Shown here in pieces: positions 9,350 to 52,317 of a DNA stretch of 64,000 nt. The notes beneath the pieces are model-generated. The model had not been told where the DNA came from. It was given only the letters and a program-made list of their open reading frames with translations, and searched no databases. Numbering within the stretch: position 1 is the stretch's first letter; the number at the start of each line of letters is the position of its first letter. A program made the position numbers and the translations under genes. This DNA comes from an uncultured bacterium (GTDB taxonomy: Bacteria > Patescibacteriota > Minisyncoccia > SW-4-49-11), in assembly GCA_937864235.1 (NCBI GenBank), contig CALMJI010000006.1, positions 113 to 64,112 of the forward strand, in the 5' to 3' direction.

Positions 9350-9450
9350 ACGGGTGACTGAGGGGTCGACCCTACGAGAGGGGCAACGAATCCACCCCCG
9401 CCTTTCAGGCACCCCCCTCCGAAGGGGGACAAATTAACTCCCCCATCCTT
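9350..9450. repeat. GC-rich mosaic hairpin repeat element, copy 4. Modules: gggtcgaccc, cccctccgaagggggacaaatta.
   Basis: Contains the palindromes ggggtcgacccc and cctccgaaggggg. It shares the ...aagg(g/a)ggacaa... module with 4100, 30326, 52122 and 62140. Confidence 0.65.
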
Positions 9451-16146: not shown

Positions 16147-17205
16147 ATGGAAATACTTGCTACAGAATCACATCAAACATCCGAAACAGAGCTCCCACCC
16201 AATATTGAATCTGAAATTCTAAAAGCATTGAGTTCAGATATCAGATTAGATATTATATTTGATCCTAATAGTATATATCTTATATTAGAGAACCAAAAAC
16301 AAAGATATCCTGACTTAGAAAATTCAGCTTTAGTTAATGTAGCCTTAAAGGACATTGATAAAAAAATGGTAGAAAATAAATTAAGATTAACTCAACTTGA
16401 GGACATTGATGAAAAAGTTAAAAGATCGATAAAAAACTTTGAAGAAGCCAAAGCTAAGCTCTCAAAATTACAGCTTGAATACTCAATGCTAAGACAACAA
16501 TTAGAGTCTCAGTTAGATAATGGTTTAGACTTAGAAGGCACACCTATACAAAATGCTCTGGACCAATACAGAAGATTTAAGTCTAAACTTGAAGGTTTAT
16601 CAGAAGACTCTCCAGAGCAAGAAGATATAAGGCGAGTGCTTAATATTTATGCCAAATATATTAAGCAAGAATTCGAGCAAAGCCCAGAAAAATACTCCAT
16701 AGGAACATCTCAGCCTTTAAGAATTGATATAGGGGAAATTGTATATGAATTTATAGAACCTAATGATTTAACAAATGAACAAAAATCTCATCAAAGAAAT
16801 ATTGCAGAGGCCAGAAAAAATATTACACAAGAACTTAGTCAAACTCCAGGAGTTTTGGGAGTTATCCCTATGGCTGGAGAAGTTGAAGGATCTAAGAATT
16901 TTGATATTATAGCCATCACACTTAAGCCAGATAATAATAATCTATCCCCTGAGGAAATAAATATAGCTCTCAAATTATTATATTCCCAAATCCAAAACTC
17001 TGCTAATTCAAAACAAGGTTTGATAGAAGCCAATATATTAGATCCTAGTAATATAGAGATATATAGTGATGGGAAACCTCTAGCCGATTTTACAGAAGAT
17101 AATAAACCTGAGTCTGAATTAGATCCTTCTCAAATATTCCAATTACATACAATAAAAGTTGCCAAAAGATCAACAGACTTTAAATATAAAAAAAGAATAT
17201 ACTGA
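16147..17205 (+). CDS. Hypothetical protein (352 aa, acidic, coiled-coil-rich)
   Basis: No recognisable catalytic motif. It sits between the two halves of the split suf cluster. Confidence 0.45.
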   Translation: MEILATESHQTSETELPPNIESEILKALSSDIRLDIIFDPNSIYLILENQKQRYPDLENSALVNVALKDIDKKMVENKLRLTQLEDIDEKVKRSIKNFEEAKAKLSKLQLEYSMLRQQLESQLDNGLDLEGTPIQNALDQYRRFKSKLEGLSEDSPEQEDIRRVLNIYAKYIKQEFEQSPEKYSIGTSQPLRIDIGEIVYEFIEPNDLTNEQKSHQRNIAEARKNITQELSQTPGVLGVIPMAGEVEGSKNFDIIAITLKPDNNNLSPEEINIALKLLYSQIQNSANSKQGLIEANILDPSNIEIYSDGKPLADFTEDNKPESELDPSQIFQLHTIKVAKRSTDFKYKKRIY

Positions 17206-17393
17206 TCATGCTATGGCTATGGTAAGACCTTCTCAAAGTCTAGAGGATAATAATAATATACCTACTTTAACTAATTCTTATACTACTCAAGGAGAAAACG
17301 GTCTTACATATACTCCATTTAATCAAGCTATGTTCCAACTATCAGCTCAGCAAGCCTTAGGATTAGATTTAGCTTAAAATATAGACTTAACAC

Positions 17394-17720
17394 CTATGAC
17401 CGCTCGCTAATCTTTTTTTGGTCACTAGCTAACATATTATCCCAAGCGGAGTGTAGATCAATATCCAATTCATGAGCTATAAACAAAACTTCTGCCATAA
17501 TATCTGCCAATTCATCAGATAATTTAGCTTTGATTTGAGACTCATCCAAACCTTCTCTATATCTATAATTTTGTAATTGCAGAACACATTTAGACAAATT
17601 CCCCACCTGATATTGCAGATCATGCGAAGCTACATCATAAGACCAAGTCTTTGTACCCTGAGCATCATATTTTTTGAAAATCTCCACCACTTCTTGTTGC
17701 ATTTTATCTAAAGTATCCAT
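17394..17720 (-). CDS. MazG-like nucleotide pyrophosphohydrolase family protein (putative)
   Basis: 108 aa, all-alpha. The C-terminal motif SDELADIMAEVLFIAHELDIDLHSAWDNML resembles the MazG/NTP-PPase EExxE/D metal-binding helix pair. Confidence 0.45.
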   Translation of the reverse strand: MDTLDKMQQEVVEIFKKYDAQGTKTWSYDVASHDLQYQVGNLSKCVLQLQNYRYREGLDESQIKAKLSDELADIMAEVLFIAHELDIDLHSAWDNMLASDQKKISERS

Positions 17721-17932
17721 ATTTTAATTGATTTACATTAACTATGTATTACTATCTCCCACTATCCTCTATGTCTACGATGTATCTCATCTTATTCATT
17801 TGGAATTGGACATAAGGATAAGCTAAAAAGTCAGCTTATAGATGATTTACAAAACTTTAAAGAAGCTATCTCTAAATTTCAAAAAGAATTTTTAAGATAA
17901 TCAAAAAACTAAACCACTATCACTCTTAATAC

Positions 17933-18265
17933 TTAATGTAATTTACCTCCAATAGGAACATCTTTATCTGGAATTACTAATATTACCTCTCCTTTATCAT
18001 TTGGTAATCCTAAAGTCAAAACCTCAGATATAGCCTCTCCAATTTGTCTCGGTGGGAAATTAACTACACATAAAACCATTTTGCCCTTCAGATCTTCTAT
18101 TGAGTAGTTTTGTACTAACTGAGAGCATGACTTTTTGATACCAATTTCATCACCTAAGTCTATTTTTAATTTATATGTAGGTTTTCTTGCCTTTGGGAAA
18201 TTCTCAACTTCTATAATTTTACCAACTCTTATATCTACTTTTTCAAAATCTTCAAATGTAATCAT
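17933..18265 (-). CDS. csaA: tRNA-binding domain protein (CsaA / Myf-domain, MetG C-terminal-like)
   Basis: 110 aa. FEKVDIRVGKIIEVENFPKARK...LCVVNFPPRQIGE matches the OB-fold tRNA-binding (Myf) domain. Confidence 0.65.
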   Translation of the reverse strand: MITFEDFEKVDIRVGKIIEVENFPKARKPTYKLKIDLGDEIGIKKSCSQLVQNYSIEDLKGKMVLCVVNFPPRQIGEAISEVLTLGLPNDKGEVILVIPDKDVPIGGKLH

Positions 18266-18283
18266 AATTTTTTACTATCTTTT

Positions 18284-18353
18284 TACCCTCTCATTATACC
18301 ACACTCCCCCTTACCCTTCCAAAAAGCCGGTTTTGAGGAGGTGGAGGTCTTTG
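18284..18353 (-). promoter_or_regulatory. Promoter element (-35 TTGGAA, -10 TGGTATAAT on minus) upstream of csaA. This is copy A of a duplicated ~70-bp segment that also carries a remnant of the sufD 3' end (…HLLKTGFLEG*).
   Basis: Roughly 88% identical over about 70 bp to 21867-21934. Its reverse complement encodes YKDLHLLKTGFLEG-stop, matching the real sufD C-terminus HLLKNGFLEG-stop. Confidence 0.6.
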
Positions 18354-18408
18354 TACTTACACATACAAAAAATCTCTAATAGAATCCTTTATCAATTCTT
18401 TGATTTAT

Positions 18409-19476
18409 TTATTCACATTTAACATAGTGTAAATATTCTATTACTGAGCTTGCTTTATGATTTCTATTATCAGATTTGTCAGCCTTAAATCTATTATACT
18501 TTTTTTTGAAAACTCCATATTCACCTCTTTTTGACATAATTGTCCTTACCTCCTCCTCTGTCATTAAACCCTCATTATTATAACTTAAAAATATATACTT
18601 TACATTTGCTTTTTGTATAATATTTTCAAAAGATTGTAAAACTTCTTTTTTTTGTGAAAATTTTGACTTCTGATTTGAATAGTCTCTAAGACCAGTTTTG
18701 CCCTTGATTTTGGGATTATCATACTTAGCAATAGTTTCTAGTAGATGATAATTTGGAGCATATTGTCTTTGATTGTAAGGAGGATCAAGATACAAAACAT
18801 CTCCCTTGACTGTCGAGACTAATTCTTCAATATCTTCATTAAAAACACTATGTTCTTTGTCATTAAGTATAAAATTTGCTGGTTGCATTACAAAATCTTT
18901 TTGAGCTGATTTTTTTAGTTGTTTTAGAAATGCTCCATAAACTGATGCTGTATTTGCCACTTTATCTATATTTTCAATCAGAGTTGTAAGTAAAAAATAA
19001 TATTCATTATCATTGATTTTACTTTCTTCTTTCCAATTTTCAATTTTTTTTCTTATTGTATCAACTTTTTTACCATTTTTATCAGAAAAGTATTGTCTTT
19101 GATTTTTTTTACTCTTTGTACCCCCAAGACAATAATTATTGTATATGAAACCTTCTGTCAGCTCTAAATTATCTAAAAATTTGCATATAAAACTTGCTCT
19201 TTCTTTATAGCTATAAGATTTTAATTCAGATAACTCATCCTCCAATCCTAAAAATTTTAAAATTTTGTGATTTTCAATGTAGTTTTTATTTAATACAAAG
19301 CTATAATATTGCAAATCATTAGCTATAATTTTATGTCCTTTGCTCTTAAAATGCTGTCCTACAACTCCAGTTCCTGCAAATAAATCTAAAAAAATAAAAT
19401 CCCTTTTACCAACTACTTTGTAAATTGATTGTTCTAAAAATTCTAAAAGAGATTTTTTGGAGCCTATATAGTTCAT
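18409..19476 (-). CDS. Dam-class (D12) N6-adenine DNA methyltransferase
   Basis: N-terminal NYIGSKKSLL, AdoMet motif DLFAGTG, catalytic YLDPPY (motif IV); 355 aa. Confidence 0.85.
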   Translation of the reverse strand: MNYIGSKKSLLEFLEQSIYKVVGKRDFIFLDLFAGTGVVGQHFKSKGHKIIANDLQYYSFVLNKNYIENHKILKFLGLEDELSELKSYSYKERASFICKFLDNLELTEGFIYNNYCLGGTKSKKNQRQYFSDKNGKKVDTIRKKIENWKEESKINDNEYYFLLTTLIENIDKVANTASVYGAFLKQLKKSAQKDFVMQPANFILNDKEHSVFNEDIEELVSTVKGDVLYLDPPYNQRQYAPNYHLLETIAKYDNPKIKGKTGLRDYSNQKSKFSQKKEVLQSFENIIQKANVKYIFLSYNNEGLMTEEEVRTIMSKRGEYGVFKKKYNRFKADKSDNRNHKASSVIEYLHYVKCE

Positions 19477-19491
19477 ATTCTGTGATAGACC

Positions 19492-20274
19492 CTAAATTTT
19501 ATTATATTTGGCAAAGTAATCATCAATTTCATTTCTAAGCTCAATTCCTACTCTTTCAAAACAATCAAGCAAATCATTATAAGCTCCTTCTCCCCCTATA
19601 AAATCCCAAAACTCATTAGCTACTTTTAATTCTTGCTCTAGGTCTAGCATCCCTCTAATTGTCCAGCGATTATATGGCTCAGGATCATAAGGATTATATG
19701 GGATAGCAATCAGTGTATGTATTTTTGCATTTGGATTATTAGCTAAAGTTATGGCTGCCCATTCTAAGAGTGTTCGCTTAAATTCCTTGAACCCTCCCGC
19801 ATTTGGTTTTGCGGTTTTAATATCAAATAGAAATAATTCTCCTGTATAACTCTCTAATAAAATATCTACTTTTGTTGGTTTAACTGTTCTAAACTCACCT
19901 TTTTGAGCTATTTTTTGAATAATTTCTATTTCTTGTTTTTTATTTGGTGATGACTTAGCAGTTATTAGATCATCCATTATTTGCTGAATTTTAATTTGAG
20001 CTTGTGAGCTAATTTTATGCCCAGCTATTGCCTGAGATTCCGCTCTCTTGAATCTACTTTTAGCTAAAGATAGAGCTACTGGTTCAAAAATACTAGTTCC
20101 AAAGTTAGTATTTAGTGAATGAATAAAAGAAAACAAAGCCATCCTATCCTTACCTAATAATCTTGAGTGAAAAGGCATTGCTTTTGGCTCTGGTTTGTAA
20201 TTTTTAAATTTATTTCTAAGGGCTGTTCTTAAAACATTTTCTATATCTGTAATTTGTTGCTGATTTAGACTCAT
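19492..20274 (-). CDS. Putative type II restriction endonuclease (PD-(D/E)xK-like), the middle gene of an M-R-M cassette
   Basis: 260 aa. Candidate PD-(D/E)xK core ...ESYTGELFLFDIKTAKP.... It is co-oriented with and overlaps the upstream methyltransferase by 4 nt. No stronger family assignment is possible by eye. Confidence 0.45.
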   Translation of the reverse strand: MSLNQQQITDIENVLRTALRNKFKNYKPEPKAMPFHSRLLGKDRMALFSFIHSLNTNFGTSIFEPVALSLAKSRFKRAESQAIAGHKISSQAQIKIQQIMDDLITAKSSPNKKQEIEIIQKIAQKGEFRTVKPTKVDILLESYTGELFLFDIKTAKPNAGGFKEFKRTLLEWAAITLANNPNAKIHTLIAIPYNPYDPEPYNRWTIRGMLDLEQELKVANEFWDFIGGEGAYNDLLDCFERVGIELRNEIDDYFAKYNKI

Positions 20275-21866
20275 ATTTTTGACTTTAGATGAAAAATAAT
20301 TTCTGCATATGGATTTTTGTCCCTTTCTGTACGATTTAATACTGGTCTTTTGTACTGATTGACGATTTTCATCCCAGCTTTATCAGCTATTTCGGGATAT
20401 AAATTCCATTTATCATTAGCTACCAAGAAAATATCAAAATCTTTAGCGAGATACTTTTTGGCATTCAATAAAACTTTTGAGATTCCCTCTACATAAGAAT
20501 TTTTGGCTTCTTTCCCTTGTCCTTTATATAATGGTCCTATTTCTAACTCATCTTTTCTCTCAAAACCAAATAGATCATAGGCATAAGCATGTTGTTCATG
20601 ATAATCTATTTGTCCTACATAAGGTGGAGATGAAAAAATACCCTTAATTTTCTGCTTCTCAAAAATTGTAGCAAGATTTCTATTTCTAATTTTAATTTCT
20701 TTATATATATCTACTGTTCTAGAATCTCCTGTAATAGTTGTCCAGTATGATTTTCTCTTTAACTGATGAAATTCTTTAATCCTTGCAATGGTATCTTTAG
20801 CATAGCGATTAAACCAATATTTTATAGAAAATATTGGTTTACAAATTTTTTTATGCTTCCAACAATAATAAGTTGTAATTTGGGGTTCTTTCAATGTAGC
20901 CAAATCTGAGTGTGTGGTAGCTCTACAAGATCGAATTGTCCGACTTAATATCACTGATAGCACTCTTTTATTTTTACCATCTTGAACCTTTTTAATCTGT
21001 TCAAAAGCAAAGTCTATTTCTTTTCTAACATTTTGAATATACCATTTATCTAAAAATATTTTATTGTTTTTTTGCTTTAATTCGATTCCATATTTATCTA
21101 CTAATTTCTCATAGATTGCTAAAAATTCTTTCTCTTTTTTGCTAGCATAATTATTTTCATCAATTTCTTTTTTATAGACTTTTCTTTTGAAATTTGGTGA
21201 TGGAAAATTTTTATTATTAAATTTAGATAATTCTATATATAGCTCTTTTTCAAATTCTTGAATTTTTGCATCTACTTCAAATTTAGTAATAGCTAAGTTT
21301 ATATTTTTAATATCTTGCATCAAATCTTCCAGATCATAATCTAATAACTTTATATCTGTTATCATAGTATTAAATCTAGAAATATCTACTCCTACAGAAT
21401 GAATGCCCAATTCATTTGCTTGAACTAAGGTAGTACCAGAGCCAGAAAATGGGTCTAATATAATATCTCCCTGCTTGAAAAACACCTCTTGTTTGAAATT
21501 ATCTATATGTTCATCTATAAAATACTCCACCAGTTGAGGTATAAATTTACCTTTATATGGATGTAATCTATGCACATGCTTGGTAGTATCTTTTTCTCTC
21601 AAATTATCAAATGAGAGACTCCAGTTCAAATCATCTCCTAGCTTTTTCTTCCATTCAATTTCTCTCTTACCATTAAAAGATTGATAATAATTCTTAAGAT
21701 CATTGATATGAACTTGAGTGCTTCCATTGTCTCCATATTTTTTGACCTTCCCGTACTGAATTAAATAAGAAATATTAGTCTCACTAACTACTCTACCCAA
21801 CAATAAACTAGCCCATTCACAAGCTTCTTTTATAGTCAATAATGATTTTGATTCTATATTACTCAT
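20271..21866 (-). CDS. DNA methyltransferase (N6-adenine or N4-cytosine, amino-methyltransferase family)
   Basis: AdoMet-binding motif I ILDPFSGSGTT and catalytic motif IV SPPY, about 270 aa apart (alpha-like order with an intervening target-recognition region); 531 aa. Confidence 0.8.
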   Translation of the reverse strand: MSNIESKSLLTIKEACEWASLLLGRVVSETNISYLIQYGKVKKYGDNGSTQVHINDLKNYYQSFNGKREIEWKKKLGDDLNWSLSFDNLREKDTTKHVHRLHPYKGKFIPQLVEYFIDEHIDNFKQEVFFKQGDIILDPFSGSGTTLVQANELGIHSVGVDISRFNTMITDIKLLDYDLEDLMQDIKNINLAITKFEVDAKIQEFEKELYIELSKFNNKNFPSPNFKRKVYKKEIDENNYASKKEKEFLAIYEKLVDKYGIELKQKNNKIFLDKWYIQNVRKEIDFAFEQIKKVQDGKNKRVLSVILSRTIRSCRATTHSDLATLKEPQITTYYCWKHKKICKPIFSIKYWFNRYAKDTIARIKEFHQLKRKSYWTTITGDSRTVDIYKEIKIRNRNLATIFEKQKIKGIFSSPPYVGQIDYHEQHAYAYDLFGFERKDELEIGPLYKGQGKEAKNSYVEGISKVLLNAKKYLAKDFDIFLVANDKWNLYPEIADKAGMKIVNQYKRPVLNRTERDKNPYAEIIFHLKSKI

Positions 21867-21934
21867 ACCCTCTCATTATACCACACTCCCCCTACCCTTC
21901 CAAAAAACCATTTTTGAGTAGGTGGATGGCTTTG
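21867..21934 (-). promoter_or_regulatory. Promoter element copy B (-35 TTGGAA, 17-nt spacer, -10 TGGTATAAT on minus) lying 8 nt from the methyltransferase ATG (leaderless). It overlaps the genuine sufD 3' end.
   Basis: The reverse complement reads ttggaagggtagggggagtgtggtataatgagagggtATG. Segment 21895-21915 encodes the sufD C-terminus LKNGFLEG. Confidence 0.6.
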
Positions 21935-22548
21935 CTTTGGCTGAGACCTCTTGTCATTAAATAAAATATGTCTGTCTCTCGAACTGGATGTATTGAAACT
22001 CCGTGGCTGGCATTGCTATTGTCAGTGGCCACTCTGAGTTCAGGGATGATTTGAATTTGCGGGCGGGCGGTGAGTAATAAAACTTCCGCTGATTGAGTTG
22101 CTTCGCAATGAGTTATAGCCTCTGGGATTTGGATTATAGTGTGTTGGGTTAATTTATTCCTTGTGGTAAGACAATATCTAGAGTCAATCTGAGACTCTGT
22201 ATAGGCAGATTTATGATTGACTGTGATTATATTCTTGGAATCTGCTTGTATATCTAGTCTAGTGATATATTTAATTTTTGAATATGGCTCTATCAGGTCA
22301 ATAGTCCAGTTTATAGTCCCGCTCCAAGCTTCTTGTTCTAATATTTCTAATTTTGCTCCTTTGGTGAGTACTAAATGTATATTATGGTTATACTCCCCTG
22401 CTCCGATTGAGAGCTCTAGGGTCGCTTGTTCGGCTATATGAATCAGACTATTAGATTTTAATTCAGCTAAATTTAATTTTTCCTGATTTCTAGATTTTAT
22501 AATCAGATAATTATCAGCGAATGGAGTGGTTGTATTATATATTGCCAT
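21892..22548 (-). CDS. sufD: Fe-S cluster assembly protein SufD (short form)
   Basis: 218 aa. The C-terminal beta-helix region is homologous to the SufB C-terminus (compare the SufD end ...FYLMTRGLSQSKAIHLLKNGF with the SufB end ...FYLMSRGMTEGEARKMIVNGF). It lies immediately downstream of sufB. Confidence 0.7.
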   Translation of the reverse strand: MAIYNTTTPFADNYLIIKSRNQEKLNLAELKSNSLIHIAEQATLELSIGAGEYNHNIHLVLTKGAKLEILEQEAWSGTINWTIDLIEPYSKIKYITRLDIQADSKNIITVNHKSAYTESQIDSRYCLTTRNKLTQHTIIQIPEAITHCEATQSAEVLLLTARPQIQIIPELRVATDNSNASHGVSIHPVRETDIFYLMTRGLSQSKAIHLLKNGFLEG

Positions 22549-22551
22549 ATT

Positions 22552-23949
22552 CTAAGTTGCTGAGTCAGTAATTTCAAGTTCAATCAAACGATTGAGCTCA
22601 ATTGCATATTCTAGTGGCAGAGCTTTGACTACTGGCTCTATAAAACCATTGACTATCATTTTCCTAGCCTCTCCCTCAGTCATACCTCTACTCATCAAAT
22701 AAAAAACCTCTTCCTCCCCCACCTTACCCACTCTAGCCTCATGTCCAATCTGGGCATCGCTAGTCTCTACCTGCATTACGGGATAGGTATCAGATTTAGC
22801 TCCGTCATTCATCAGGAGAGCATCACAGACAATATGTGATTCACTACCAATAGCTTTGGGTGTAATTTTGACCAAACCGCGATAGGATGAAATTCCATTA
22901 TCTTGAGAAATACTTTTAGCACTGATGGTTGATTTGGTATAAGGAGCTACATGGATTACTTTGGAGCCTGTATCCTGCTCTTGTCCCTCTCCTGCAAAGG
23001 CTATTCCAAGACTATCCGAACGAGCATATTCTCCCCTCAGAATACTACAAGGATATAACATTGTCACCCCGCTACCCATATTCCCATTTAGCCATTCAAT
23101 AGTACCGTGGGCATCTACTAAAGCTCTTTTAGTATTGAGATTATAGGTATTTTTACTCCAGTTTTCTATGCTAATATATTTGACTTGAGCTCCTTTGTGG
23201 ACGAATATCTCCACTCCACCAGCATGCAAGGCCGAAGCATTCCATCTTGGAGCACTACAACCCTCAATATAAGTTAATTTTGAACCTTCATCGGCAATAA
23301 TTAAAGTATGTTCAAATTGTCCTCCAGCCTGCATATTCATCCGAAAATATGCTTGTAGCGGTAATTCGACTTCCACCCCTTTTGGAACATAAATAAATGT
23401 TCCTCCACTCCAAACTGAAGCATGCAACATAATAAATTTATGATCATTGATTGGGATACATTGAGTCATAAAATATTTCTGTACTAAATCTGGATATTCC
23501 TGCAAAGCTGTATCCATATTCTCAAAAATCACCCCTTTATCCTTCAAATCCTGCTTTAGATTATGATATACCATATCTGAGTCATATTGAGCTCCAACCC
23601 CTCCTAGAGCCTGTTTTTCGGCCTCAGGGATACCTAATTTATCAAAAGTATCCCGAATATCGTCTGGTACATTTTCCCAAGTTGTAGATTCATCAGCGTC
23701 TGGGCGACTAAAATAGATAATTTTCTCTAAATCAAGTCCATCTAGACTTGGACCCCAATTGGGAAGAGGAGTTTGCTTATATAATTCAAAAGCCCTAAGC
23801 CTCTTTGCTAACATCCAAGAGGGTTCGTTTTTTTGTTTGGATATCTCTTCAACCACCTCCCGATTAAGTCCCGGTTTGGTCTGAAATTTTCCCTTATGTA
23901 AGCTATGATTATCGTATACTGATCTATCCATAAATTTGCCTCTAGCCAA
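22552..23949 (-). CDS. sufB: Fe-S cluster assembly protein SufB
   Basis: 465 aa with conserved SufB core motifs. The track start is TTG; an in-frame ATG lies 6 codons downstream. Confidence 0.9.
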   Translation of the reverse strand: MARGKFMDRSVYDNHSLHKGKFQTKPGLNREVVEEISKQKNEPSWMLAKRLRAFELYKQTPLPNWGPSLDGLDLEKIIYFSRPDADESTTWENVPDDIRDTFDKLGIPEAEKQALGGVGAQYDSDMVYHNLKQDLKDKGVIFENMDTALQEYPDLVQKYFMTQCIPINDHKFIMLHASVWSGGTFIYVPKGVEVELPLQAYFRMNMQAGGQFEHTLIIADEGSKLTYIEGCSAPRWNASALHAGGVEIFVHKGAQVKYISIENWSKNTYNLNTKRALVDAHGTIEWLNGNMGSGVTMLYPCSILRGEYARSDSLGIAFAGEGQEQDTGSKVIHVAPYTKSTISAKSISQDNGISSYRGLVKITPKAIGSESHIVCDALLMNDGAKSDTYPVMQVETSDAQIGHEARVGKVGEEEVFYLMSRGMTEGEARKMIVNGFIEPVVKALPLEYAIELNRLIELEITDSAT

Positions 23950-24013: not shown

Positions 24014-24655
24014 ATGGATATCTTCTTTGATTACCTTATCCGAAATGATGTACCCAGAGAAACAATAGACATCTTGTTGATGTTTCCTATTATGGCTGGT
24101 TTCATCGTAGCAGCCAGACAAATCGTGGGAGTTAAGGCTTTTGGTATATATACACCACTGATTATCACATTTGCTCTGACTGAAATTGGGTTCAAATACG
24201 GAGTTAGTATTTTTATAGTCTCCCTTCTGGTAGCCTCAATAGTACGATTCCTACTTAGAAAAATTAGAATTTTGTATTTACCAAAAATGGCTTTGATACT
24301 ATCTATTACAGCCTTGTCTATGTTCTTTAGTCTAATCTGGGGCATATTCTCAGATAGCACAATGTTTGTACAAGCCTCAATTTACCAGATTTTAATTATT
24401 ATAACCTTAGTAGAGAAATTCATCAATGCTCAGATGGAAAAAGGTTATCGTACGGCGGTAATTCTATCTCTAGAAACTTTAATCCTAGCCTCATTTGGAA
24501 ACTTAATTATGACAACTACCAGACTTCGAGACTTGGTATTCTATAATCCTTGGGTTATTCTAATTGTCTTTGCTGGAATTATATTCTTAGGACGCTATGA
24601 AGGACTTAGACTTTCTGAATATATACGCTTTAGAAAAATTATTAGCAATCAATAA
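24014..24655 (+). CDS. 7-TM integral membrane protein (7TM module of the type that partners alpha-L-glutamate-ligase-like ATP-grasp enzymes)
   Basis: 213 aa with seven predicted hydrophobic helices. It lies 4 nt upstream of, and co-oriented with, an ATP-grasp ligase, which is the arrangement described for 7TM / inactive-transglutaminase partners of RimK-like ligases. Confidence 0.5.
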   Translation: MDIFFDYLIRNDVPRETIDILLMFPIMAGFIVAARQIVGVKAFGIYTPLIITFALTEIGFKYGVSIFIVSLLVASIVRFLLRKIRILYLPKMALILSITALSMFFSLIWGIFSDSTMFVQASIYQILIIITLVEKFINAQMEKGYRTAVILSLETLILASFGNLIMTTTRLRDLVFYNPWVILIVFAGIIFLGRYEGLRLSEYIRFRKIISNQ

Positions 24656-24658
24656 GCT

Positions 24659-26080
24659 ATGAATTGGCTAGAAGCATTCGTATTTAGTCAAAAAATACTC
24701 GGGATGAATGCCCGCAATCTTTCTTATATCAAACCCTACAATTACCGCAAATGGGTAAAGCTAGTAGACAATAAAATCAAGTTCAAAAAAGCCCTACAAC
24801 AAAATAATATCCCGACCCCAAAACTCTTAGCTTCTATCCGCTCCTATGAAAAGCTTAATGATTTTGATTATAATAAATTACCAAAAAGCTTTGTTCTAAA
24901 ACCAACATCTGGCTTTGGAGGAGAAGGAATTGTAGTGATTTTTGGAGAACACAAAAAAAGAACAGCCGACGGCGAGAGACAATGGGTCAAAACTAAAGGA
25001 GTCAAACTCAGTGAGACTATGATTCACAACCATATTAGTAATATTCTAGATGGAACATATTCTCGAACCAATAGCCCGGATGTAGCCTTCTTTGAAGAGA
25101 GAATCAAAATCAACAAATCATTCAAGCATTTAGCCTACAAAGGTATTCCTGATATTAGAGTTATCGTATTCAATCGCATTCCCGTAATGGCAATGATGAG
25201 AATCCCGACCAAAGAATCCGACGGCAAAGCTAATCTGCATCTTGGAGGAATTGGAGTCGGAATAGATATGGCTACCGGAGTTACTACCAATGCCATTATG
25301 CGAGAGAAATTTATCGATACTATCCCAGGGACAAAAATTAATTTAGCTGGGATTAGAATCCCATATTGGAATACAATTTTGGATATTGCAATTCGCACTG
25401 CTGATGTGACAAATCTAGGGCTCACTGGAGTAGATATAGCCATAGACCGAGATGCTGGACCGGTAGTATTAGAGGCCAATGCACGACCGGGACTAGCCAT
25501 CCAAATTGCCAATCTCGCCCCCCTAAAAGAAAGACTCCAAAAAGTCAAAGGTCTCAAAGTCAAAACTATCAAAAGAGCAATCCGACTAGCAAAAGATCTC
25601 TTCGGAGGAGAAATTGAAGAGGAAATTGAGGAAATCACCGGACGACAAGTGATAGGTTTGATTGAAGAAATCACCCTGTTTGGTAAAGACAGTCAAAAAC
25701 AAACTATTCTAGCTAAGGTAGATACAGGAGCAGGCAAAACATCTATTGATGAAAATTTAGCTATTGAATTAGGTTATGCTGGAGTGTTAGAGCATATGAA
25801 AAAGTTTAAAATAAAGCCAGTGCTAACCTTAGATGAAATTAATGAGCTATCTAAAAATAAAGTCTGGCAAAAAATAGAAGAGCACCCCGATATAGTGGGA
25901 GTCTCTAAAGTAAAAAGTAGTCACGGCTACTCTTATAGACCGATAATCTATATCAAACTTAAAGTTAGAGATGATATTTTTGGAACAAAAGCCAATATTA
26001 TAACTAGACAAGATTTGGAGTACCAAATGATATTAGGAGAAAACTCCCTCAAAAGATTTATCATAGATCCAAGGAAGTAA
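24659..26080 (+). CDS. ATP-grasp ligase (alpha-L-glutamate ligase-related) fused to a C-terminal retropepsin-like aspartyl-protease domain (DTGA)
   Basis: The N-terminal ~330 aa has the ATP-grasp fold (KPTSGFGGEGIVV, LHLGGIGVGIDMATG, VLEANARPGL). The C-terminal ~130 aa has KVDTGAGKTSIDENLA, resembling the RimK-associated retropepsin-like protease family (PF05618 type) that is usually a separate gene. Confidence 0.65.
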   Translation: MNWLEAFVFSQKILGMNARNLSYIKPYNYRKWVKLVDNKIKFKKALQQNNIPTPKLLASIRSYEKLNDFDYNKLPKSFVLKPTSGFGGEGIVVIFGEHKKRTADGERQWVKTKGVKLSETMIHNHISNILDGTYSRTNSPDVAFFEERIKINKSFKHLAYKGIPDIRVIVFNRIPVMAMMRIPTKESDGKANLHLGGIGVGIDMATGVTTNAIMREKFIDTIPGTKINLAGIRIPYWNTILDIAIRTADVTNLGLTGVDIAIDRDAGPVVLEANARPGLAIQIANLAPLKERLQKVKGLKVKTIKRAIRLAKDLFGGEIEEEIEEITGRQVIGLIEEITLFGKDSQKQTILAKVDTGAGKTSIDENLAIELGYAGVLEHMKKFKIKPVLTLDEINELSKNKVWQKIEEHPDIVGVSKVKSSHGYSYRPIIYIKLKVRDDIFGTKANIITRQDLEYQMILGENSLKRFIIDPRK

Positions 26081-26088
26081 AATATCAC

Positions 26089-26943
26089 ATGAAGACAATA
26101 CTATTTACAACACGTAATGAACCAAATACAAAAACAATTAGTAAGTTGATCGAAGCTGCCAAAAGATTAGACCTCAATATAGAAATAATTCATACTAAAT
26201 CTAGTATAAATAAACTCCATAAAAATAATAAATTAAAACATATAGACTTTGCAATACATAGAGACGTTGATTGTGCTCCATCCCAAAACTTTTATGTAAA
26301 TCAACTTCCATCATCAACGAGGCAACTAAATAAAGATTTTTTATTGAAATTTAATAAATATGACAAAGCTATACAATATTCATATTTATCCCAAACTAAT
26401 CACAGTATCCCTTTAATCCCTACCATATGGTCATTTGATACTTTAAGCTATGAATATATATGTAAATATTTTCAAGATAACAAGTTTTTAGTTAAACCTA
26501 GCTGGGGATCATTTGGAAATGGAATTCAAATCATAGACTCTCAGTCAAAGTTAGATGAATATTATAAAACAAATCGTCCTTACAATATTATATTTCAACA
26601 GTATATTCCGATTGAATGGGATATTAGGGTTTTAATAATAGGAAATAAAGTATTGGGAGGAATGAAAAGGAATAAGCCTCATGAGGATTCCATTGTAACC
26701 AATATATCCAAAGGTGGTATTGGGGAAAAATTTGTATTGTCACCTGAAGTAGAAAAAATAGCTTTGGATGTATCTAGAACGTTATCATTAGAATACGCTG
26801 GGGTAGATATTTTATTTGATTCTAAACATAATCCTTATGTGATTGAAGTGAATTCAAGCCCACAATTCTATGGTTTCAATAAGACCTTTAATATTCAAGT
26901 TGAAGATTTATTACTAGATTACTTGATATCATCTAAAGGTTAA
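26089..26943 (+). CDS. RimK-family ATP-grasp ligase (alpha-L-glutamate ligase-like), paralog 2
   Basis: EWDIRVLIIGNKVLGGMKRNK...ISKGG...AGVDILFD...YVIEVNSSP matches RimK central and C-terminal motifs. Confidence 0.75.
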   Translation: MKTILFTTRNEPNTKTISKLIEAAKRLDLNIEIIHTKSSINKLHKNNKLKHIDFAIHRDVDCAPSQNFYVNQLPSSTRQLNKDFLLKFNKYDKAIQYSYLSQTNHSIPLIPTIWSFDTLSYEYICKYFQDNKFLVKPSWGSFGNGIQIIDSQSKLDEYYKTNRPYNIIFQQYIPIEWDIRVLIIGNKVLGGMKRNKPHEDSIVTNISKGGIGEKFVLSPEVEKIALDVSRTLSLEYAGVDILFDSKHNPYVIEVNSSPQFYGFNKTFNIQVEDLLLDYLISSKG

Positions 26944-26947
26944 ATTT

Positions 26948-27808
26948 ATGAAAAAAATATTATTCATTAATTTTCGAACATCATTCCAAGTAGAGTTTAA
27001 AAAAAACATAGAATCTCATGGATATAATTTCTATCATATTAAATTTACTGAGCTATCTTTACTAAATAATCAGATACTTGTGAATGACTCAAAACTTGAA
27101 GAGTTTAGCTATGTATTTGTAGGACTAACTGAGAAACACAAACATATTAGCCCTATTTTGAAGCAATATCTAATTAATAAAAATATACCTTTTATATTTT
27201 ATGGACATAAACCTGATCATATTGACTCTAAATCATTTGAAATATATAATTTGAGTAGTAATAATATTCCAATTATACCTTCCTTAATTTCAAGAGATAA
27301 AAATACAATAGCTGACTTTATAAACCAATATACTAATCCTTTTATAACAAAACCTGTAAATGGTAGAAAGGGTAGAGAAATACTTCAACATTCCTCTTTA
27401 GAATCTACAATGGATGCCGTAAATAAATCTGAGACTCCTCTAATTATTCAGCCTATGATCCTTAATAACGGTGATTATAGAGTTTGGATATTAAAGGGGC
27501 GGGTCATAGGGGTAATCAAGAGAAGTCCTAATGCAGAGGGTGAGTTTAGGTCTAATATTTCTCTTGGTGGAACTGCTCAAGTAGCTAGCCTCCCTGATGA
27601 TGTATTAGATATGGCTATCAAGTCAGCTCAAATTCTAGATTTGGATATGGCTGGAGTAGATATTATTCAAGATATTAATACCAAGAAGTATTATATTATG
27701 GAAGTTAATGCAGCCCCCCAATTCACTGGCTTTATGGCAACAACGGGTATTAATTTGTTTGAAGTTATCACAAAATATATAATACAAGAAATTGAAGTTA
27801 AGAAATAA
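26948..27808 (+). CDS. RimK-family ATP-grasp ligase (alpha-L-glutamate ligase-like), paralog 3
   Basis: DYRVWILKGRVIGVIKRSPNAEGEFRSNISLGGTAQ...AGVDIIQD...YIMEVNAAPQF. Confidence 0.75.
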   Translation: MKKILFINFRTSFQVEFKKNIESHGYNFYHIKFTELSLLNNQILVNDSKLEEFSYVFVGLTEKHKHISPILKQYLINKNIPFIFYGHKPDHIDSKSFEIYNLSSNNIPIIPSLISRDKNTIADFINQYTNPFITKPVNGRKGREILQHSSLESTMDAVNKSETPLIIQPMILNNGDYRVWILKGRVIGVIKRSPNAEGEFRSNISLGGTAQVASLPDDVLDMAIKSAQILDLDMAGVDIIQDINTKKYYIMEVNAAPQFTGFMATTGINLFEVITKYIIQEIEVKK

Positions 27809-29800: not shown

Positions 29801-29876
29801 GCCGAAATAGCTCAGCTGGTAGAGCAACCGCCTTGTAAGCGGTAGGTCGGGGGTTCAAGTCCTCTTTTCGGCTCCA
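29801..29876 (+). tRNA. tRNA-Thr (anticodon TGT), CCA encoded
   Basis: Hand-folded cloverleaf. The 7-bp acceptor stem GCCGAAA pairs with TTTCGGC, the D arm is GCTCAGCTGGTAGAGC, the anticodon loop is CTTGTAA and the T loop is TTCAAGT. Confidence 0.9.
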
Positions 29877-29888
29877 TAGATATTTCTA

Positions 29889-29897
29889 TGGTATAAT
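29889..29897 (+). promoter_or_regulatory. Extended -10 TGGTATAAT for tRNA-Tyr
   Basis: Lies 14 nt upstream of the tRNA 5' end. Confidence 0.4.
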
Positions 29898-29911
29898 GTA
29901 TGTACATTTTT

Positions 29912-29999
29912 GGGCAGATGGCGGAGCAGTCAAACGCATCGGTCTGTAAAACCGACGCCTTTTCAGGCTACGTAGGTGCGAGTCCTACTCTGCCCACCA
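29912..29999 (+). tRNA. tRNA-Tyr (anticodon GTA), long variable arm, CCA encoded. The T-loop has G instead of the near-universal U at position 55.
   Basis: Acceptor GGGCAGA pairs with TCTGCCC; the anticodon stem TCGGT pairs with ACCGA around loop CTGTAAA; the variable arm is GCC-ttttca-GGC; the T arm is GTAGG-TGCGAGT-CCTAC. Confidence 0.75.
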
Positions 30000-30069
30000 A
30001 ACATTTACCAAAATAGTTGCAAAATATTTTATTTTGTGTATACTATGTTGGTATTTATCTTATTATTAA

Positions 30070-30142
30070 GGGTGCATAGCTCAGTTGGTAGAGCAGAGGC
30101 CTTTTAAGCCTTTGGTCGGTGGTTCGAGCCCACCTGCACCCA
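30070..30142 (+). tRNA. tRNA-Lys (anticodon TTT), no encoded CCA
   Basis: Acceptor GGGTGCA pairs with TGCACCC; the anticodon loop is CTTTTAA; the T arm is GGTGG-TTCGAGC-CCACC. Confidence 0.9.
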
Positions 30143-30242
30143 CATTTATAAAAAATTCATAATCTTACTCTATAATTACTTATACATCATATACTTTTGC
30201 ATTAGATTACTGAAGAAAAATTATAAAAAAGAGTGCTTAATT

Positions 30243-30350
30243 TTGTCTCCCTTAGGAGGGGGAAGCCTGAAAGGCGGGGGTGGATAAAACATAAACTAGA
30301 ACTCTATCCACCTCCGGCACTCCGTGCCACCTCCTCCAAAGGAGGACAAT
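30243..30350. repeat. GC-rich mosaic hairpin repeat element, copy 5. Modules: cccttaggaggg, ccacctccggcactccgtgccacctcc, cctccaaaggaggacaatta.
   Basis: Nested palindromes. It shares the ggcac..gtgccggaggtgga module with copy 8 (52060) and copy 11 (62040), and the ctatccacc module with copy 11 (62110). Confidence 0.7.
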
Positions 30351-30448
30351 TACTATCCAATTTATGATATTAGTCTAGTAATGTATACAATCCCTTTTGT
30401 CGATGATTACCTCATCTCGTACACCCTATACACAAAAACTAAAATATA

Positions 30449-51994: not shown

Positions 51995-52140
51995 TTATTG
52001 CGGGCGACAAAAGGTCGCCCATACAAGAAAGCACTGTCCTCCTTTGGAGGAGGTGGCACGAAGTGCCGGAGGTGGATTAAATTTAATACTACATCTTATC
52101 CAACCTCTCCCTACGGGTACTCCCTCCAAAGGGAGACAAA
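51995..52140. repeat. GC-rich mosaic hairpin repeat element, copy 8. Modules: gggcgacaaaaggtcgccc, ctgtcctcctttggaggaggtggcacgaagtgccggaggtggatt, ctccctccaaagggagacaaa.
   Basis: Shares modules with copies 5, 9 and 11. Confidence 0.7.
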
Positions 52141-52185
52141 AACACAATTTCGCACAAACTCACACATCGCTCCGACCTTCAAGTC

Positions 52186-52228: not shown

Positions 52229-52317
52229 TGGTACTAGGAGAGGGACTTGAACCCTCACAGTGTTTAATCACCAACGGATTTTAAGTCCGTCGCGTCTACC
52301 ATTCCGCCACCCTAGCT
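52229..52317 (-). tRNA. tRNA-Leu (anticodon TAA), type II, CCA encoded
   Basis: Minus-strand fold: acceptor GCTAGGG pairs with TCCTAGT (2 G-U pairs); the anticodon stem ACGGA pairs with TCCGT around loop CTTAAAA; the T arm is GAGGG-TTCAAGT-CCCTC. Confidence 0.85.

Follow-up and report, generated by a model that had tools for sequence, protein, structure and literature searches.

How three co-oriented restriction-modification (R-M) genes came to lie directly behind sufD in an iron-sulfur (Fe-S) assembly cluster, and whether they form a single system, is the question raised by a 64,000-nt stretch of contig CALMJI010000006.1 from an uncultured bacterium (the window, to which all coordinates refer; the genes of the locus lie on the minus strand unless stated otherwise). 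An earlier reading of this DNA, hereafter the original prediction, had described a methylase-endonuclease-methylase (M-R-M) cassette of 531, 260 and 355 amino acids (M1, R and M2), placed between sufB-sufD and a block with csaA, a MazG-like gene and sufS-U-C-T. The open reading frames are present on the minus strand with the sizes and motifs it gave, the neighbors are those described, and Pfam, PADLOC and the AlphaFold (AF2) fold agree that the cassette codes for two amino-methyltransferases and a PD-(D/E)XK endonuclease, that is, for type II R-M functions. It had also explained the cassette as an MboI-type unit of GATC specificity, and on this point our analysis leads elsewhere. The reading that we favor, with a probability of about 0.72, is that the locus is composite: an M1-R pair and a leftover M2 would stand in a promoter-headed region of variable cassettes after sufD. 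The features of the locus are as follows (labels of the form L049 denote the loci compared with the window):

23949..22552, minus strand: sufB, upstream of sufD
21892..22548, minus strand: sufD, 218 amino acids (PF01458, 1.3e-22; TIGR01981), whose 3' end gave rise to the repeated element
21866..21934, minus strand: element copy B, the final ~40 nt of sufD (stop codon included), TTGGAA, a 17-nt spacer and TG-TATAAT
20271..21866, minus strand: M1, 531-aa amino-methyltransferase (PF01555; PADLOC MTase_II)
19492..20274, minus strand: R, 260-aa type II restriction endonuclease (PF09520; PD-(D/E)XK fold)
19480..21854, minus strand: M1-R module, 2.4 kb, without nucleotide homology to L035, L041 and L049 (blastn breakpoints)
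18409..19476, minus strand: M2, 355-aa D12-class N6-adenine methyltransferase (PF02086; FokI-N-domain type)
18294..19479, minus strand: M2 module, M2 together with the left part of copy A (blastn breakpoints)
18284..18353, minus strand: element copy A, a remnant of the sufD tail (..HLLKTGFLEG*) plus putative promoter
17933..18265, minus strand: csaA, tRNA-binding protein (NCBIfam tRNA-binding/CsaA, 2.9e-46)
17394..17720, minus strand: MazG-like gene, 108 aa (weak Pfam match, E 0.005, below the cut-off)

Not only did R match the profile PF09520 (RE_TdeIII) over positions 2-242 of 242, at 4.8e-93 and with 311.7 bits against a cut-off of 27.2, but this was also its only Pfam match, and its close homologs carry the NCBI name TdeIII family. 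Thousands of close homologs, 70-85% identical, occur across Patescibacteria, Bacteroidota and archaea; a plasmid collection held only distant TdeIII-family matches to R (31-34% identity). The AF2 model of R (predicted local distance difference test, pLDDT, 85.8; predicted template modeling score, pTM, 0.83) has a PD-(D/E)XK core. Its motif VD137...D151-I-K153 is invariant in 30 close homologs, a set of 56 diverse representatives keeps D137 and K156 at 90% or more, and a structure search with the model returned restriction enzymes and other PD-(D/E)XK nucleases as the top matches. M1 matched PADLOC MTase_II (PDLC03249) as a single model over its full length, at 5.7e-237, and PF01555 (N6_N4_Mtase) partially, at 2.1e-12 and in the motif I region only. 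Motif I, ILDPFSGSGTT (~residue 140), precedes motif IV, SSPPY (~residue 415), with an insert of ~250 aa between them, and all four orthologs compared (58-79% identical) keep DPFSGSGTT and SSPPY. Motif IV is of the SPP(Y/F) kind, not D/NPPY, and on this motif M1 would fall among the N4-cytosine methyltransferases, SPPY being of the N4-methylcytosine (m4C) type in contrast to the DPPY of CcrM (PMC10406627). M1 is the probable cognate methylase of R and likely methylates cytosine at N4. The large insert of M1 also holds, at residues ~310-345, a conserved cluster of cysteines and histidines, CRATTH..YYCWKHKKICKP, which is possibly a metal site.

In the window M1 and R overlap by 4 nt (ATGA), and the pairing holds elsewhere. 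In all the contexts examined outside the species, a 530/531-aa or 566-aa M1 ortholog stands before R, usually with a 4-nt overlap, and no D12 gene follows R in any of them (L017-L024, L050). Particularly, in L017-L024, whose contexts are unrelated, R follows an M1 ortholog of 530/531 aa and overlaps it by the same 4 nt, while in L050, which is 95% identical in nucleotides over M1-R, the pair stands behind the sufD tail and runs straight into the conserved leader of the MazG-like gene, M2 and csaA being absent. Because M1-R occurs without a D12 gene in several lineages, L050 included, M1 would be sufficient to protect, and the two genes appear to be a complete, self-contained type II R-M pair of orthodox kind. 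TdeIII-family systems (TdeIII of Treponema denticola and the homolog in Helicobacter pylori PeCan4) resemble this pair in the full-length PF09520 match of the endonuclease and in being a two-gene, horizontally mobile M plus R unit; in H. pylori, a TdeIII-type pair is reported to have moved horizontally (PMC3467074). The pair of the window differs from them in being fused to a resident start codon and promoter.

The third gene has other relations. M2 matched PF02086 (D12) at 5e-45, with motifs DLFAGTG and LDPPY, and PADLOC PDLC03257 at 9.5e-113; it also aligns to the N-terminal half of the 646-aa, two-domain model PDLC03287, and one of its homologs is annotated as M.FokI. No sequence match to the solved structures of Dam, DpnM or T4 Dam was obtained, even at E 10. 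Its nearest models are FokI-like rather than Dam or DpnM, and M2 appears to be a FokI-type D12 methylase. The native context of M2 is a trio made up of a 260-aa PF01555 methylase (Mb), a 301-aa protein (X) and the 355-aa M2. We found Mb-X-M2 at the sufD locus of Paceibacteria relatives (L041-L043, L049; M2 98% identical in amino acids) and also in Bacteroidota (L044-L047; M2 82% identical), and L039 carries X-M2. For X, no family was detectable, PADLOC and the solved structures included, and the plasmid collection held nothing for it. Sequence searches of solved structures gave nothing meaningful for R, M2 or X and matched M1 through its motif I segment only. Compared with FokI-type D12 and orphan methylases, M2 shares the N-half match to the 646-aa model and the loss of native neighbors; it differs in being single-domain and in standing 15 nt behind an unrelated endonuclease gene. 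Since M1-R is found without M2, and M2 with Mb-X, the M-R-M array of the window would be a chimera, in which a complete M1-R pair is followed by the surviving third gene of a different system. In Mb itself (L049 2094-2876), motif IV reads HPPY, which is unusual, and lies after motif I.

The original prediction of a single MboI/DpnII-like GATC unit, inserted once between sufD and csaA with duplication of a 70-bp target, has to be weighed at this point. MboI/DpnII systems do share with the window the order M, R, M and the combination of one PF01555-type and one D12-type methylase, a layout also seen in Mb-X-M2. They differ in that R is a PF09520 (TdeIII/HinfI family) enzyme outside the DpnII/MboI family, M2 is FokI-like and not Dam-like, and the genes of the window come from two systems that travel separately in other genomes. 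Moreover, the M2 module is 95-97% identical in relatives that have different genes upstream of it. GATC is depleted in the window (observed/expected 0.50), as the prediction would have it, but equally so in relatives without these genes (0.38-0.54). We regard the single MboI-like unit as highly improbable, and the part of this proposal that concerns the insertion itself depends on the repeats that flank the cassette.

These repeats were aligned as proposed. Copies 18284-18353 and 21866-21934 are identical in 63 of 70 aligned columns, with six substitutions and one indel (BLAST E ~1e-18 against the window). Both carry TTGGAA, a spacer of 17 nt (copy B) or 18 nt (copy A) and TG-n-TATAAT, a promoter-like site. 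Copy B overlaps the true sufD stop (..GFLEG*) and leaves 8 nt from the -10 to the ATG of M1, which it is predicted to drive; copy A reads ..HLLKTGFLEG* out of context and is followed by a leader of ~27 nt up to the csaA ATG at 18265. A 38-nt core had no other match within three mismatches in the 64 kb, and none of 100 shuffles matched. A scan of Joint Genome Institute (JGI) metagenomes with a strict pattern found the element in two contigs only, both of them sufD loci. The idea of a dispersed promoter was rejected for these reasons, as the only copies in the window are A and B and the metagenome scan led to sufD loci alone.

The element is nevertheless not confined to the window. We aligned 12 copies from seven lineages (three in L041; two each in L035, L012 and the window; one each in L039, L011 and L028) and obtained the consensus CCTCCTCAAAnCCGGyTTTTTGGArrGGTAGGGGG(AG/TT)TGTGGTATAAT. 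L049 has two further copies, and the contigs of L028/L029, and of L050 (outside the 12), break off inside a copy. The element measures 50-75 bp and heads most of the same-strand cassettes downstream of sufD; across the seven lineages, about nine different gene sets follow a copy. In L041, for example, the three copies lie between sufD and a NUDIX gene, between NUDIX and Mb-X-M2, and between M2 and a gene for a 230-aa membrane protein. Each copy holds the stop codon of sufD together with ~30-40 nt of its coding sequence, from which it follows that the copying runs from sufD outward; this is what repeated duplication of an insertion target would predict. Copy B is orthologous to the sufD-proximal copies in L035, L041, L049 and L012. 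Copy A is a composite. On its left it is orthologous to the post-M2 copy of L041, L039 and L049, and on its right (-10 and leader) it matches the csaA cassette of L028.

To see the locus in more distant relatives, we used a sufD-based scan of GTDB species representatives, which yielded eight Parcubacteria/Paceibacteria genomes with sufD 56-88% identical. In none of the eight do M1, R, M2 or csaA lie between sufD and sufS, and the cassette must therefore have been acquired. In six of them a terminator hairpin comes after sufD, with a convergent gene pair without known family, and in the other two (L011, L012) other same-strand genes come after it behind a promoter-like sequence; in lineages without same-strand cassettes, the terminator hairpin takes the place of the promoter after sufD. 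The proposal of an insertion with target duplication stands, then, as far as acquisition and the sufD-tail repeats are concerned. What finds no support is the one-off event. In its favor, 70-bp direct repeats, 90% identical and each other's best match, bound the trio exactly, and three published marks of long target duplication are present (PMC2853133). However, at least 12 copies of the element are known, those of other lineages bounding other cassettes, and no relative shows sufD directly followed by csaA, as had been expected; csaA is absent from the locus in the relatives except on the short L028/L029 contigs, and is an insertion with respect to L049.

Furuta, Abe and Kobayashi (2010; PMC2853133) documented both R-M genes inserted with a long target duplication and the replacement of one R-M system by another at the same locus. 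The window agrees with the published pattern in having an insert with R and M of less than 20 kb (3.5 kb here), direct repeats longer than 30 bp (70 bp) that were taken from a resident gene's 3' end, a neighborhood free of transposase and integrase, and R-M genes replaced in place. It departs from it in that the duplicated target carries a promoter-like sequence, occurs in up to three copies per locus and bounds cassettes other than R-M genes as well. One could also propose that the element is a dedicated site-specific recombination site in an integron-like array. A copy at the 5' boundary of most cassettes, the many gene sets behind copies in seven lineages, breakpoints inside the element and an imperfect palindrome in it (CCTCCTCAAA..TTTTTGGAGGGG) would fit such a site. 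On the other hand, precomputed Pfam matches revealed no recombinase domain within ~10 kb on either side at any locus, and the stability of the element hairpin (z +0.01 to -2.7) is not clearly above that of shuffled controls. Furthermore, every copy contains sufD coding sequence, as target duplication predicts, each cassette has a putative promoter of its own, unlike integron cassettes, and the junctions of csaA and of M1-R in L050 lack a full element copy. We consider a dedicated recombination site improbable, and the duplicated target the better account of the element.

The breakpoints between lineages point to the same modules. When the window was compared with L049 (flanks 89% identical), homology extended through sufB, sufD and copy B to 21867, was missing across M1-R and returned at 19479, 3 nt before the start of M2. 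The homology of M2 ended at 18295, inside the -10 of copy A; none was found across 18294..17736 (csaA and its 3' flank), and it resumed at 17735, 15 nt before the start of the MazG-like gene. L035, L039 and L041 have the same right-hand junctions as L049, and left-hand junctions at 21855-21875. The points at which lineages part are located inside the element. With those of L039, L041 and L049 the M2 module shares 95-97% identity, and the suf flanks are 84-90% identical; as the module is more alike than its flanks, a recent exchange of M2 is indicated. M1-R, for its part, stands where L035, L041 and L049 carry Mb-X or hydrolase-NUDIX genes. Moreover, the first four codons of M1 (ATGAGTAATATA, MSNI) are those with which the resident hydrolase gene of L012 and L035 starts, while M1 orthologs elsewhere start MNTV.. 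or MGIA... The start codons being those of the resident hydrolase, M1 was joined in frame to the resident start codon and its putative promoter.

csaA itself would be an inserted cassette, since the region 18294..17736 is a 559-bp insertion relative to L049. At this locus, among the relatives examined, it was found only on the short L028/L029 contigs, behind an element copy and with the upstream part cut off. When close csaA homologs were used to look for an empty site, they did not discriminate (csaA is ~75% identical across phyla) and gave L028 and L029 as the only close relatives. The original prediction had taken the MazG-like gene for a possible partner in a defense island. The same protein, without any amino-acid change, stands behind four different sets of upstream genes; in L012 and L049 it is 92.6-98% identical, and PADLOC gave no match. 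It is the conserved resident at the distal end of the variable region, whether R-M genes are present or not, and does not belong to the R-M unit. Across lineages whose sufD is only 67-86% identical, the MazG-like protein is identical or 92-98% identical, and its leader (TATACTCAATAAGTAATCAACTTAAAT), conserved in five relatives, was lost in the window to the csaA insertion. A strain variant (L007, 598-642 and 4569-4945) has the sufD stop changed from TAG to TGG, which extends sufD into the start region of M1. The same variant diverges completely from the window right after the csaA stop, for which either a rearrangement in the strain or a chimeric assembly could account.

As for the site of M1-R, we give even odds to a GGNCC-type target with m4C, because of the likeness of R to the EcoO109I fold, the presumed site of TdeIII and the SPPY motif of M1. 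EcoO109I, which cuts RG^GNCCY (PMC7337904), was the closest predicted-fold match of R; AvaII (G^GWCC) was a weak structural match at rank 33, and in both cases there is likeness to R, not family membership. GGNCC occurs at 0.47-0.59 of expectation in M1-R hosts versus 0.76 in pooled relatives. Several points count against this assignment. For TdeIII, GGNCC is taken after its Pfam/REBASE description, and the literature we found names the enzyme without giving its site. The likeness to EcoO109I amounts to only 11-14% identity and a template modeling (TM) score of ~0.44, and the newer Pfam label of PF09520 is "HinfI" (GANTC). Depletion of short words is of little help as a route to specificity: GGNCC is also at 0.45-0.55 in two small relatives without M1-R, and, many palindromes being depleted, the approach was set aside as non-discriminating. 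This depletion is clade-wide, with or without these R-M genes (window and L010-L016; observed/expected): GCGC 0.28, ACGT 0.49, GATC 0.50, CATG 0.56 and CCNGG 0.52.

The newer label makes GANTC a site to be considered for M1-R, although we hold it to be unlikely. It also bears on a further proposal, that the three genes now work as one system in which M2 is kept to co-protect or is otherwise required, for example at HinfI-like GANTC. The HinfI site contains adenine, and GANTC is at 0.69-0.83 of expectation in three M1-R hosts versus 0.90-0.98 in relatives. The genes are also tightly packed on the same strand, with 15 nt from R to M2 and no promoter in between, and the arrangement is fixed: 17-19 contigs, drawn from several metagenomes of freshwater and other origin, carry identical proteins, and all of them are at least 99.5% identical to the window, with the arrangement unchanged. 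Against these points stand the M1-R pairs without a D12 gene in several lineages (L050, at 95%, among them) and the conserved partners of M2, which are Mb and X. Likewise, the SPPY motif of M1 is of the cytosine-N4 type, and the best structural neighbor of R has a site of G and C only around a central N. All this leaves a joint system with little credibility beside the reading of a self-sufficient pair next to a leftover methylase. The GATC specificity of the original prediction finds no support either, M2 being nearest to FokI-type enzymes and the depletion of GATC being equal where these genes are absent. The site of M2 is probably asymmetric, FokI-like and different from that of M1-R; the presence of two methylases in its native trio suggests the asymmetry.

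The gene families, modular contexts, breakpoints and family of copies described so far are direct observations, and on them we propose the following history for the composite locus, in which promoter activity, specificities and the role of X are predicted. A resident promoter (TTGGAA, 17 nt, TG-TATAAT) would overlap the sufD stop, and each copy of the sufD tail with this promoter would probably be a long target duplication made upon insertion of a cassette. The copies could then have offered short stretches of homology by which strains exchanged cassettes. M1-R, fused in frame to the first four codons of a resident downstream gene, would have displaced Mb and the putative endonuclease X of an older trio, leaving M2 as a stand-alone N6-adenine methylase; csaA would be a further cassette behind the second element copy, and the MazG-like gene an ancestral resident. 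Transcription of M1-R is predicted to start at the sufD-tail promoter, almost leaderless, probably together with read-through from sufBD. M1 would methylate the target of R, most likely GGNCC or a subset of it carrying N4-methylcytosine, and R would cut unmodified DNA. M2 would methylate adenine independently, at another site, its cognate nuclease being gone.

Four observations weigh against this history. An empty site, in which a single element copy would lead directly to the MazG-like gene or to csaA, as is part of the published pattern (PMC2853133), was not recovered among the relatives examined (the eight GTDB genomes, L035, L039, L041, L049 and L050); the arrangement nearest to it is that of L049, with two copies around a different trio. 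For this reason we infer both the ancestral arrangement and the sequence of events. The entry of csaA made no new element copy, so not every insertion duplicates its target. The two copies of the window are more alike (86-90%) than either is to its positional counterparts elsewhere (69-81%), which would fit gene conversion as well as a more recent duplication in place. Finally, X is a putative nuclease by the position of its gene.

The R-M genes as such, a TdeIII-family pair and a D12 methylase, are ordinary, and the locus fits known patterns. Less usual, and worth noting, is that the duplicated target carries a promoter-like sequence and has been reused several times, giving a small promoter-headed array. 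We speculate, with more doubt than conviction, that the sufD tail with its promoter is a self-propagating landing pad, duplicated by each capture. If true, each new cassette would arrive with a strong promoter and with an additional homology patch for exchange between strains, in an integrase-free, promoter-supplying cassette system of a reduced-genome, candidate-phylum bacterium, and R-M systems and orphan methylases would be turned over at a fixed site inside an essential Fe-S assembly cluster. Apart from the landing pad, the locus would exemplify the replacement of an R-M system with survival of the old methylase as an orphan, one route to solitary methylases. Paceibacteria have tiny genomes and few recognizable mobile elements, yet they keep a hot spot for cassette swapping whose junction is a duplicated gene tail with a putative promoter. 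For annotation, the lesson is that M-R-M order alone does not indicate an MboI-like system.

Regarding base composition, the cassette has a GC content of 26-32% versus 37-40% in the suf genes; a foreign origin was not accepted on this ground, as other native genes of the window are equally AT-rich. The gene that adjoins the hot spot also varies. sufD is 56-88% identical in amino acids among relatives versus 90-98% for the adjacent sufB (window versus L009-L016), and L041 pairs a 96% sufB with a 59% sufD, which suggests that sufD itself may be mosaic. Beyond the MazG-like gene, the window has a divergent gene of no recognized family and then sufS-U-C-T. A convergent pair lies there inside the suf cluster (16147-17377, plus strand) and is conserved in the clade (L010, L014, L015, L049 and others). 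It codes for a protein of ~417 aa (352 aa in the window) and another of ~95 aa, without a match in Pfam, NCBIfam or PADLOC; in the window the small frame is replaced by an overlapping one of 72 aa. At the other end, 24014-27808, divergent from sufB, codes for a 7TM_transglut membrane protein and three RimK/ATP-grasp ligase paralogs, which are kept in all relatives. A dispersed repeat of ~200 nt, GC-rich and internally complementary, without an Rfam family at the gathering threshold, lies at 30221-30423, with weaker copies at 52035-52141 and 9390-9437. The two longer copies stand just downstream of tRNA genes (29801-30142 and 52232-52316), and a 91%-identical copy is found in L041 (8326-8529), between its third element copy and the 230-aa gene.

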